Assembly: GCA_947475005.1 (NCBI GenBank)
Contig: CANJLI010000005.1
Coordinates: 5,858 to 69,857 of the forward strand
DNA from: Deltaproteobacteria bacterium
Lineage (GTDB): Bacteria; Bdellovibrionota_B; Oligoflexia; Oligoflexales; Bog-1112
DNA: 64,000 nt
Direction: 5' to 3'
Part shown: positions 1-2,511 of the stretch, in pieces
How positions within the stretch are numbered: the stretch's first letter is position 1
How the letters are laid out: every line of letters starts with the position of its first letter
Made by a program: the position numbers and the translations under genes
Notes under the pieces: generated by a model
Told to the model about the DNA's origin: nothing
Databases searched by the model: none
Seen by the model: the letters and a program-made list of their open reading frames with translations, nothing else

Positions 1-35
1 TGAAAAAACAGCATTTTTTTCCAGTTTGCCTCTCA
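1..35. repeat. 35-bp direct repeat, copy 1 (may extend left of the window)
   Basis: tgaaaaaacagcatttttttccagtttgcctctca is identical to 2912-2946. Confidence 0.9.
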
Positions 36-45
36 TACAAACTTC

Positions 46-2511
46 ATGATAAAGGACATTCTCATTATGCAAACCTACGTTGTCTTTTTATTTCTCCTCC
101 TTAGCACAAGCCTTCATGCTTTCATTCCTAAAGAAGAGCTGAAAAACCTGAATCTCACTACGGACGATGATCTTAACCCCTTAAACGGGATACCTTGGGC
201 AGAAGGAATTCTCGAAAATTACGGCGAGCTAGCGGAGTATGAGGACCCTGTTCGTCAGCTCGTCCTCCTTCTTTTTCATCGCACGGGAACTTTTGATCCA
301 TCTACGCGCAATCACTTCGCCAAGGATGCAACTCCACGTGAGATTGGCGAGCTCATGGGGCAAATGAAATCCGGGCAATTTAAAGAAAAAGGCTCTAAAG
401 GTGATATAGGGAGTGCTCTTAAAGCTTTAAAAGTCAATAACATTTATAATCCTCTAGCCTACAGAGTCCTGAGCACCTTGCTTTATTACAAGGCACCCTC
501 ACGCGAAGATTATAAATATTTCTATGAGGGCCTTCAAGAGACTTACCCAAAAGGGATAGACATACCTAAAGACTGGAGGGCCTGGCTTGAAGAAAAATTT
601 ACCGCTGAAGTAGGCAGAGCCCCAAATCCTCCTGATATAGATAAGGACTATGATGCCTATTTATTTTGGGTTTTGTCTAGAAGATCTGAAGCACCGCCCC
701 TTCAGCTTCAAGGAACTTCTAAAAGCAAGGCTGGGGCTTTTGCCGATTGCGGGGAAACCTCTTTACGTAATTTTCTAAAACTTATTTTAGATCATAATGG
801 TGAGTACAATGTGAAAGTTCTTGAAGAACTTGGCGCAGATAGTGAGCTGCTCGCCTTTTTTACAGAATTTAAAACGAGAGCCGATCAAGAGAATGTTGCC
901 GCAAGAGATGCTTGGTCTAACCTCACGGTGGGCCACCCAGAAGTTCGTTATGTAAAGGATAAATACGAATTAAACGCTGGCGCTGACAATATGCTAACTC
1001 TCTTGAAAAGACTTCTTCCTAAGCTGAACGATGCAAAGGATTGGGAAAGCACTTTTAGATTCATCGAAGAAGCTAGAAAGAAATCTGGACTTGGGGATTT
1101 TAATTTAACGGAAGTAAAATTAGCGAACCATCTTGGCGACTTGATTTTCTCTGTCGCTAACTTAGGTAGATTTGTTTGGCACTTTCAAAGTGGGCATTTT
1201 TATATCGCACCTCTTCCTGCTGAAACACTAGGAGAATACCCGTTTGCAGAGAGAGAAGATAAGCGATCTAAAGACGCGGCTATCTTCTATCCGATGAGCG
1301 CCACCCAAGAGGGAGATAGGTTCCTTTATACAACTCTGAGAAATAACGAAAATATTGAAAAGCTAATAGAAGAGGCGAAGAGGCGAAGAGGCGAAGAAGA
1401 CCTACCTCTAAGTGCAGCAGTGGGTTTATTGAACCGTCTTTCGACTGAAGATGCAAGGCGAAGGATATTTCCTACCGTTGTGGATACATTTACCTTGAAA
1501 AGACTTCTCGAAGATAAGCATTTAACTCTATATAAAGAGCATCTCTTTGGCCTTATAAAGACAGGTAGATTTGGACCAGCTCAAATTTTAGGTGCAAATA
1601 GCCGATTTATAGAAAAATTTGGTTTCTACTTGCCCGGCCACGGGCCGACCATCTGTGCACTGGCCCTAAGCCCGGACGGGGGGACACTTTATTCAACCTC
1701 TTGTGATAATACCATTCGCATCTGGGATCTTAAAACCGGGCAGGCGACGAAAGTCCTCTCCGGCCACGGGGACGGAATCTATGTACCGGTCCTAAGCCCG
1801 GACGGGGGCACACTTTATTCAGGCTCTAGTGATAATACCATTCACATCTGGGATCTTAAAACCGGGCAGGCGACGAAAGTCCTCTCCGACCACTGGGACG
1901 CCGTCATTGCACTGGCCCTAAGCCCGGACGGGGGCACACTTTATTCAGGCTCTGGTGATAAGACCATTCGCATCTGGGATCTTAAAACCGGGCAGGAGCC
2001 GAAAGTCCTCGCCGGCCACAGGGAGAGCGTCAATGCACTGGCCCTAAGCCCGCACGGGAGCACGCTTTATTCAGGCTCTATTGATGGGAGCATTCGCATC
2101 TGGGATCTTAAAAGCGGGCAGGCGCCGAAAGTCCTCTCCAGCCACTGGTCCGCCGTCTATGCACTGGCCCTAAGCCCCGACGGGAGCACGCTTTATTCAG
2201 GCTCTCGTGATAAGGCCATTCACATCTGGGATCTTAAAACCAGGCAGGCGACGAAAGTCCTCTCCGGCCACGGGGGCGATGTCTTTGCACTGGCCCTAAG
2301 CCCGGACGGGGGCACACTTTATTCAGGCTCTGATGATAGGACCATTCGCATCTGGGATCTTAAAACCGGGCAGGAGCTGAAAGTCCTCTCCGGCCACGGG
2401 GCCGCCGTCAAGGAACTGGCCCTAAGCCCGGACGGGGGCACACTTTATTCAGGCTCTTATGATAATACCATTCGCATCTGGGATCTTAAAAAAGAATTAA
2501 GGTCTCATTAA
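46..2511 (+). CDS. Secreted WD40-repeat protein: signal peptide, ~500-aa N-terminal region of unknown function, C-terminal 7-bladed WD40 propeller
   Basis: 821-aa ORF. Hydrophobic N-terminus (VVFLFLLLSTSLHA). Seven 42-aa units, each GH..(A)LALSPDGxTLYSGSxDxTIRIWDLK, the classic WD40 GH/WD signature. Confidence 0.85.
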   Translation: MIKDILIMQTYVVFLFLLLSTSLHAFIPKEELKNLNLTTDDDLNPLNGIPWAEGILENYGELAEYEDPVRQLVLLLFHRTGTFDPSTRNHFAKDATPREIGELMGQMKSGQFKEKGSKGDIGSALKALKVNNIYNPLAYRVLSTLLYYKAPSREDYKYFYEGLQETYPKGIDIPKDWRAWLEEKFTAEVGRAPNPPDIDKDYDAYLFWVLSRRSEAPPLQLQGTSKSKAGAFADCGETSLRNFLKLILDHNGEYNVKVLEELGADSELLAFFTEFKTRADQENVAARDAWSNLTVGHPEVRYVKDKYELNAGADNMLTLLKRLLPKLNDAKDWESTFRFIEEARKKSGLGDFNLTEVKLANHLGDLIFSVANLGRFVWHFQSGHFYIAPLPAETLGEYPFAEREDKRSKDAAIFYPMSATQEGDRFLYTTLRNNENIEKLIEEAKRRRGEEDLPLSAAVGLLNRLSTEDARRRIFPTVVDTFTLKRLLEDKHLTLYKEHLFGLIKTGRFGPAQILGANSRFIEKFGFYLPGHGPTICALALSPDGGTLYSTSCDNTIRIWDLKTGQATKVLSGHGDGIYVPVLSPDGGTLYSGSSDNTIHIWDLKTGQATKVLSDHWDAVIALALSPDGGTLYSGSGDKTIRIWDLKTGQEPKVLAGHRESVNALALSPHGSTLYSGSIDGSIRIWDLKSGQAPKVLSSHWSAVYALALSPDGSTLYSGSRDKAIHIWDLKTRQATKVLSGHGGDVFALALSPDGGTLYSGSDDRTIRIWDLKTGQELKVLSGHGAAVKELALSPDGGTLYSGSYDNTIRIWDLKKELRSH
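1636..2487. repeat. Seven tandem 126-bp units (one per WD40 blade) with long identical nucleotide runs
   Basis: Strings such as ctggccctaagcccggacgggggcacactttattcaggctct and accattcgcatctggga tcttaaaaccgggcagg recur every 126 bp. Units start at 1636, 1762 ... 2392. Confidence 0.9.

Follow-up and report, generated by a model that had tools for sequence, protein, structure and literature searches.

One gene of the analysed window, a stretch of 64,000 nucleotides from an uncultured Oligoflexia/Bdellovibrionota-like bacterium, encodes a protein of 821 amino acids (46..2511, forward strand, from the list of open reading frames) in which a signal-peptide-like N-terminus and a large domain without relatives in the domain libraries are followed by a WD40 propeller built from seven near-identical units. 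It is considered rather probable that this protein is a secreted modular effector, probably directed towards a host, and that its fast-evolving propeller goes back to the amplification of one blade, followed by diversification at the residues which make contact with a partner. The source genome comprises 2.15 Mb in 68 contigs and is 93% complete. The reading frame is uninterrupted in four independent contigs, and in the public annotation it starts at 67 (M8), giving a form of 814 amino acids (P0001).

The repeat array was delimited by Tandem Repeats Finder at 1634-2491 with a period of 126, 6.8 copies, 86% matches and no indels, and cut in frame it consists of seven WD40 units of 126 bp on the forward strand (1636..2490; starts at 1636, 1762, 1888, 2014, 2140, 2266 and 2392), the last of which has 99 bp. 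The Pfam family WD40 (PF00400) matches with seven stretches (E 3e-73), and 340 WD40 chains of the PDB match the array at E<1e-30, the best solved relative being the Nostoc WRAP propeller 2YMU (E 3e-147). Read in the frame from 1636, the units follow the pattern GH-xxx-V-x-ALALSPDGGTLYSGS-x-D-x-TIRIWDLKTGQ-xx-KVLS, with H2, S22, D24 and W30 identical in all of them. From unit 1 to unit 7 the strings after H are GPTIC, GDGIY, WDAVI, RESVN, WSAVY, GGDVF and GAAVK, and the variants of the SGSxDxT loop are C.N, S.N, G.K, I.G, R.K, D.R and Y.N. Unit 7 (2392-2490) ends after codon 33 and is followed by the tail KELRSH and the stop codon (2491..2511, forward strand), homologous to the tails EKELKK..., EKEMKK... 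and EEELRR... of paralogous proteins. Directly before the first GH lies the segment EKFGFYLPG (1609..1635, forward strand), and K[FV]GxYL precedes the propeller in all paralogues; judging from WD40 topology, this segment would supply the outer (D) strand which closes the propeller together with the truncated last unit. A scaffold of 2.9 kb (L038), assembled separately, has the whole seven-unit sequence without a single base difference.

The mean pairwise identity of the units is higher in nucleotides (86.7%) than in amino acids (72.3%; median 0.71, range 0.62-0.82). Against the consensus, 3 changes are synonymous and 59 non-synonymous, against an expected synonymous share of 26.5% (binomial p 1e-5). 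Of these 62 changes, 43 are gathered in eight of the 42 codons, namely 3, 4, 5, 7, 23, 25, 37 and 38 (Monte-Carlo p<1e-5 versus a uniform spread). By the Nei-Gojobori method the ratio of the non-synonymous to the synonymous proportion of differences (pN/pS) is 2.6 overall and pN reaches 0.50 at the eight hypervariable codons, while at silent sites the units have diverged little (pS 0.04-0.06). Codon 23 encodes seven residues (C, S, G, I, R, D and Y), with T as the third base in every unit.

The variable codons are placed around two conserved positions: V6, at the start of strand A, is flanked by codons 5 and 7, and the invariant D24, in the B-C turn, by codons 23 and 25. In HET-E, codons 7 and 9 and codons 25 and 27, which surround the conserved positions 8 and 26 and belong to the D-A loop and to the B-C turn of the top face, were found to be under positive selection (Paoletti et al. 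2007, PMC1805685). According to Wu et al., the hotspots of the top face are R1 and R1-2, where strand A begins, and D-1, which precedes the Asp of the tetrad (PMC3419727); assigned by the sequence pattern of that study, they are codons 7, 5 and 23 here, which rank among the most variable. Highly repetitive prokaryotic WD40 proteins have been described as conserved except at these hotspots (Hu et al. 2017, PMC5587647). By sequence pattern and literature, six of the eight hypervariable codons correspond to WD40 top-face contact positions, those selected in HET-E, and are predicted to sit on the top face of the propeller; codons 37 and 38, placed by the same reasoning where the outer strand D begins, probably belong to the rim rather than to the top.

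The initial annotation had described seven near-identical units of 126 bp, had listed the variable strings after GH and in the SGSxDxT loop, and had compared the pattern with the hypervariable surface of HET-E type propellers. The units are real, as repeat finding, the sevenfold PF00400 match and the in-frame cut at 1636 agree; the strings are exactly as it listed them, and the comparison is upheld by the same geometry around V6 and D24, by the hotspot match and by the count of synonymous and non-synonymous changes over the aligned units. Its wording that the units differ only at a few fixed positions is in line with the gathering of changes in eight codons, but it is slightly overstated because 24 of the 42 codons vary at least once. 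A diversity-generating retroelement was considered and rejected: no RVT_1 match was found in the 93%-complete genome, the variable codons are not of the AAY type, and the array is not a target of such an element since a reverse transcriptase is missing from this genome and the changes are not A-specific.

Three paralogues are encoded in the same genome, one on contig C1 and two in tandem on contig C28. They share the layout of the window gene (signal peptide, N-domain and seven-blade WD40 part) and 50-55% identity in the N-domain, and their blades are ordinary: diverged, unequal in length and in several cases without GH. Scored with a hidden Markov model of the unit, the paralogue blades reach 2-65 bits versus 64-95 bits for the units of the window gene, and the blades of P0002 (from another metagenome) and of the more distant P0005 are diverged too. 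Because the three paralogues of the same genome keep ordinary diverged blades, the propeller of the window gene appears to have been rebuilt from one blade. Its unit bears the family hallmark ALALSPDGxTLYSGSxDxTIRIWDL and is closest to blade 2 (65 bits) and blade 7 (57 bits) of the C1 paralogue; in the rest of the genome, the last blade of this paralogue matches best at the DNA level (77-80% identity). As the unit is of the family's own type, and as the segment before GH and the C-terminal tail are common to the window gene and the paralogues, it seems that an older diverged propeller was replaced, with its conserved ends retained, through the amplification of one blade. A foreign donor of the unit elsewhere in the genome was rejected, only the family's own paralogues giving matches (69-80% over at most 103 nt). 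The amplification is much younger than the gene duplications, because pS between units is only 0.04-0.06 and the paralogue N-domains differ at 45-50% of residues. It has been reported that new propellers are continuously amplified from single blades (Pereira and Lupas 2022, PMC9218822). The two tandem paralogues lie on the same strand (C28:1-7092, loci L003 and L004 of genome G000), adjoined by a lipase-like open reading frame of 352 amino acids with a GHSQGG motif. A fifth, distant member of the family in this genome (L005, C11:29780-33661; 807 amino acids, motif SDCVETSIRNW) has a signal-peptide-like N-terminus and a different C-terminal region.

All four gametes occur in 28 of 55 informative site pairs between the units, including pairs outside the hypervariable codons (codons 16/17 versus 28), a pattern that fits exchange between units, with recurrent mutation as the alternative. 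The protein cluster at 90% identity holds two members of 772 amino acids (P0013 and P0015), exactly 42 residues shorter. Their contigs belong to two other ENA assemblies, made from short reads with MEGAHIT, and are 100% identical to the window contig over flanks of 3-6 kb and throughout the 1,569 nt that make up the N-domain part of the gene, upstream of the array. The three short-read assemblies with identical flanks thus carry 7, 6 and 6 units, and the missing unit is lost at different junctions. In P0013, units 2 and 3 are cleanly fused within an identical stretch of 37 nt (in-register exact stretches between units extend up to 48 nt). In P0015 unit 5 is joined to the tail ACC TGG CAG GAG ATG, and this junction cannot be derived from collapse because the bases TGG and ATG occur in no unit of the seven-unit form. 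These forms suggest variation of the array while its background is otherwise clonal. The propeller had initially been called rapidly re-tunable, and the six-unit forms on fully identical flanks and the novel junction bases of P0015 lend this partial support, although the P0013 form could be an assembly collapse. Exact-pattern and protein-pattern scans of the Joint Genome Institute (JGI) metagenomes for more alleles or orthologues returned none.

The part preceding the propeller, residues 26-530 (121..1635, forward strand), is predicted to be mostly helical around a compact core (AlphaFold2, AF2; mean predicted local distance difference test, pLDDT, of 80). The conserved core, delimited by alignments, comprises residues 213-397 (682..1236, forward strand) and was modelled with pLDDT 94 and a predicted template modelling score (pTM) of 0.91. 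It carries the motif D234-C235-G-E-T-S-L-R-N242 (DCGETSLRN), with the Cys codon at 748-750, and His384, whose codon is at 1195-1197. Invariant among 27-34 aligned sequences are D234, C235, E237, T238, S239, R241, N242, W290, Y302, W378 and H384, and the Cys, Trp and His are invariant in 52 further representatives as well. In the core model the Cys would open a helix after a beta-hairpin and the His would begin the final strand of an antiparallel sheet with four strands. Pfam, NCBIfam and PADLOC gave no match for residues 1-530 and none in the N-domain of 34 or 52 relatives, phmmer and profile hmmsearch against the PDB found nothing better than E 0.65 for the N-domain, and Foldseek against the PDB gave no match for the model of 505 residues and none at E<0.4 for the core. 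The sole structural match, obtained in the viral library, is an uncharacterised protein of Yasminevirus (template modelling score 0.71, E 2e-6). Yasminevirus is a giant virus of amoebae. A full-text literature search for the DCGETSLRN motif found no paper.

A papain-fold peptidase of the C39-like type was also considered and is not supported. The modelled Cys at a helix and His on a strand agree with such a peptidase, but the hhalign comparison with a C39 alignment built from related genomes gave a probability of 1.4%, and for this reason the domain is called here an orphan Cys/His domain. Most likely it is a thiol-dependent enzyme, which is offered as a best guess and not as a finding. A nucleoside triphosphatase (NTPase) had not been seen in the protein at the outset, and this observation holds, as Pfam and NCBIfam are empty outside the WD40 part and PADLOC is empty for residues 1-530. 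The STAND, NACHT or NB-ARC NTPase of HET-E type receptors was found neither in residues 1-530 nor in the 34 and 52 family members, hence the protein is not of the NLR or STAND kind.

The family of the Cys/His domain is large and modular. A word-indexed search of 5.8 billion proteins returned only 12 relatives; a profile of the core run against 1.84 billion cluster representatives returned 1,958 at E<=1e-3, of which 1,003 reach E<=1e-10. The genomes that carry the domain are Oligoflexia, Bdellovibrionales, Bacteriovoracaceae and Holophagaceae metagenome-assembled genomes, one metagenome-assembled genome of Paracaedibacteraceae and the amoeba symbiont Odyssella thessalonicensis; among 41 related genomes the domain was present in five, and it was absent from a genome of the same genus. 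The C-terminal partner consists of ankyrin repeats in 19 of 52 representatives and of Lcl_C in three, FNIP repeats were found on a giant-virus-like family member without a signal peptide, and WD40 is the partner only in the small subgroup of the window gene. Because of the ankyrin and FNIP fusions, the amoeba symbionts and the amoeba giant virus, eukaryotic targets are indicated. Some of the ankyrin arrays are composed of near-identical units of 33 residues in 8-12 copies with few variable positions (P0060 with 12 units, P0046 and P0055), as in the pattern PLY[RW]AA[AYE][NY]G. The theme of repeat regeneration thus recurs in the Cys/His family with ankyrin in the place of WD40.

The N-terminus of the protein (46..120, forward strand; MIKDILIMQTYVVFLFLLLSTSLHA|FIP) resembles a signal peptide, in which small residues at -1 and -3 come after a hydrophobic core. 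Residues 1-25 have the layout of the Sec type and the AXA-type site SLHA|F, which has the counterparts TANA|V, TVNA|F and TAHA|F in the paralogues, and according to a hydropathy rule 86 of 106 full-length family members possess an N-terminus of this kind. The signal peptide proposed in the initial annotation is therefore kept, on this heuristic, across all paralogues and most of the family. As for the further route, type IV secretion was rejected, no VirB4 having been found in the genome, and four secretins are encoded there.

It is proposed that the protein would be exported by the Sec pathway and would work with two modules. The first (residues 26-530), a representative of a large unannotated Cys/His family, may be the conserved part that performs the chemistry, and the second, the seven-blade WD40 propeller, may bind the partner or serve for targeting. 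At some point the ancestral diverged propeller would have been replaced by amplification of a single blade of 42 residues of the family's own type; the copies would then have changed nearly only by amino-acid-altering substitutions at R1-2, R1, D-1 and neighbouring positions, by which a symmetric surface could be turned into a specific one. Exchange between units, and the gain and loss of units, apparently continue. Secretion beyond the periplasm would be expected under this scheme, a eukaryotic (protist) target would be the natural one, and an arms race may be the driving force. Several points weigh against it. A Sec signal peptide provides for periplasmic export only, so with no VirB4-type system found and four secretins present the delivery to a host is a supposition. 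The placement on the top face was made by homology to published WD40 structures, and the homoplasy at the hypervariable codons could come from recurrent mutation instead of exchange between units. The six-unit variants are contigs assembled by MEGAHIT from short reads, in which exact stretches of up to 48 nt make collapse possible for P0013. The N-domain has neither an activity nor a fold assignment, given the empty Foldseek search of the PDB and the low C39 probability, and the word enzyme draws on the invariant Cys and His and on their modelled secondary-structure setting.

Other explanations can be given for the same gene. The protein might be an exported sensor for defence or for self/non-self recognition, an NLR-like receptor that lost its NTPase or never possessed one, whose propeller would recognise molecules of phages or competitors in the periplasm with the Cys/His domain as executioner. 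Nearly all characterised arrays of near-identical WD40 repeats do belong to STAND- or NLR-type immune or allorecognition proteins, the best solved relative is the WRAP propeller of a Nostoc STAND protein, and the WD40 part matches a candidate-system model of PADLOC; however, the NTPase is missing, the N-domain has no PADLOC match and the genes around (bestrophin, carbonic anhydrase, LysR and TerC) include no partner. In most of the family, moreover, the domain is joined to ankyrin or FNIP repeats, members are known from amoeba symbionts and from an amoeba giant virus, and an export that is family-wide (86 of 106 members) would be unusual for phage sensors, which makes a sensor of this kind unlikely. 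Quite unlikely is also a single young amplification without diversifying selection, in which the variable sites would be the least constrained loops, drifting, and nothing would be re-tuned. It agrees with the low silent divergence (pS 0.04-0.06) and with the opinion of Pereira and Lupas that blade amplification is general and not necessarily adaptive (PMC9218822), yet drift cannot raise pN above pS, and here pN/pS is 2.6, the eight codons have a pN of 0.50, and for the split of 3:59 the binomial p is 1e-5. Neither would drift be expected to give seven residues at D-1 over an unchanged third base, or differences confined to the array between otherwise identical contigs.

Those differences could in turn be artefacts, the array or its six-unit variants being chimeras of short reads, as all the contigs are short-read metagenome assemblies, the P0013 junction falls in a stretch of 37 nt that unit 2 shares with unit 3, and in-register exact repeats are up to 48 nt long. 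Against this stand the identity of the seven-unit array in two separately assembled records, the preserved frame with the canonical seven blades, and the distinctness of every unit, with differences at most 48 nt apart; collapse cannot create the P0015 bases TGG and ATG either, and an artefact is regarded as very unlikely. The secreted effector with a rebuilt and diversified propeller is thus retained as the preferred explanation. A broader proposal is tentative and open to considerable doubt, namely that the DCGETSLRN domain marks a large and undescribed effector family, secreted by protist-associated bacteria and also borrowed by giant viruses of amoebae, in which the targeting arrays would time and again be regrown from single repeats and afterwards diversify at the contacts. 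If true, the "amplify, homogenise, diversify" principle of immune receptors would also be used by attackers in the arms race between host and microbe, and the turnover would be fast enough to be visible between otherwise identical genomes.

The repeat phenomenon itself is already documented in prokaryotes (PMC5587647, PMC9218822). New here are the carrier domain family, the coexistence in one genome of a rebuilt propeller and propellers of the ancestral type, and the possible turnover of units between identical contigs. Near-identical hypervariable arrays are mostly read as the signature of an immune receptor, and in the present case such an array is found on an exported, NTPase-free, effector-like protein. 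The gene could serve as a tractable bacterial system for the making of a new binding specificity from one blade, with the paralogues as the "before" state. Attention is also drawn to an unannotated domain family that counts about 2,000 sequence clusters and in which a Cys/His pair is invariant.

On either side of the gene lies a direct copy of a repeat of about 327 bp, the two copies being 94-95% identical to each other (blastn). The upstream copy starts about 290 bp ahead of the window (contig C5:5567-5892), so that only its 3' end (1..35, forward strand) lies within, in direct orientation to the downstream copy at 2631-2946 on the same strand. The 3' part of about 190 bp forms a palindromic element, which the genome contains at least 30 times, and the 5' part of about 125 bp is present at these two sites only. 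The direct repeats could make the gene a cassette able to loop out by recombination, or they could be just duplicated intergenic DNA. Within the gene, the GC content at third codon positions is 0.62 in the WD40 array versus 0.37 in the N-domain (genome mean 0.485, standard deviation 0.08); the arrays of the paralogues are intermediate, at 0.43-0.54, and GC-richer than their own N-domains. A perfect 8-bp repeat, GAAGAGGC in 3.6 copies at 1369-1397, lies within the coding sequence of the N-domain, where it encodes part of EEAKRRRGEED, and it is probably trivial but a potential slippage site.

Among known systems, the modular bacterial effectors offer an analogy. The leucine-rich-repeat ubiquitin ligases IpaH and SspH (LRR-NEL type) and the ankyrin or F-box effectors of Legionella join an enzyme to a repeat domain of eukaryotic type. 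In outline the protein described here is like them, as it pairs a conserved module of catalytic appearance with a repeat module that can be exchanged (WD40, ankyrin or FNIP within its family) and has a patchy distribution in host-associated bacteria. No relation to these effectors in sequence or fold was detected, and the protein has a Sec signal peptide in contrast to their type III or type IV signals.

Similar in sequence organisation are the HNWD proteins of Podospora anserina (HET-E, HET-D and HET-R; PMC1805685, PMC2873952), which likewise have units of 126 bp with selected codon pairs around the hydrophobic residue of the D-A loop and the Asp of the B-C turn, and whose units evolve in concert with an unstable number of repeats. 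Unlike them, the protein of the window is bacterial and exported, has neither HET nor NACHT and carries a single array with no sign of exchange between loci, the blades of the paralogues being diverged. To our knowledge, repeat-induced point mutation (RIP) does not occur in bacteria.

The array itself belongs to the published class of highly repetitive WD40/WRAP propellers of prokaryotes (also Dunin-Horkawicz et al. 2014). As in the Npun_R6612 propeller (2YMU) and in the other examples (PMC5587647, PMC9218822), the seven blades of the window gene are near-identical with few synonymous differences, they vary at the hotspots, and all of them would have arisen from a single blade by one round of amplification. 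With 0.72 internal identity the array lies only just above the cut-off of >=0.7 for this class (Hu et al. 2017). The known cases are mostly cytoplasmic fusions to STAND NTPase, kinase, TIR or caspase domains, whereas in the present protein the propeller is joined to a signal peptide and an orphan Cys/His domain with no NTPase. It differs from them also in that diverged paralogues in the same genome preserve the state before the amplification.

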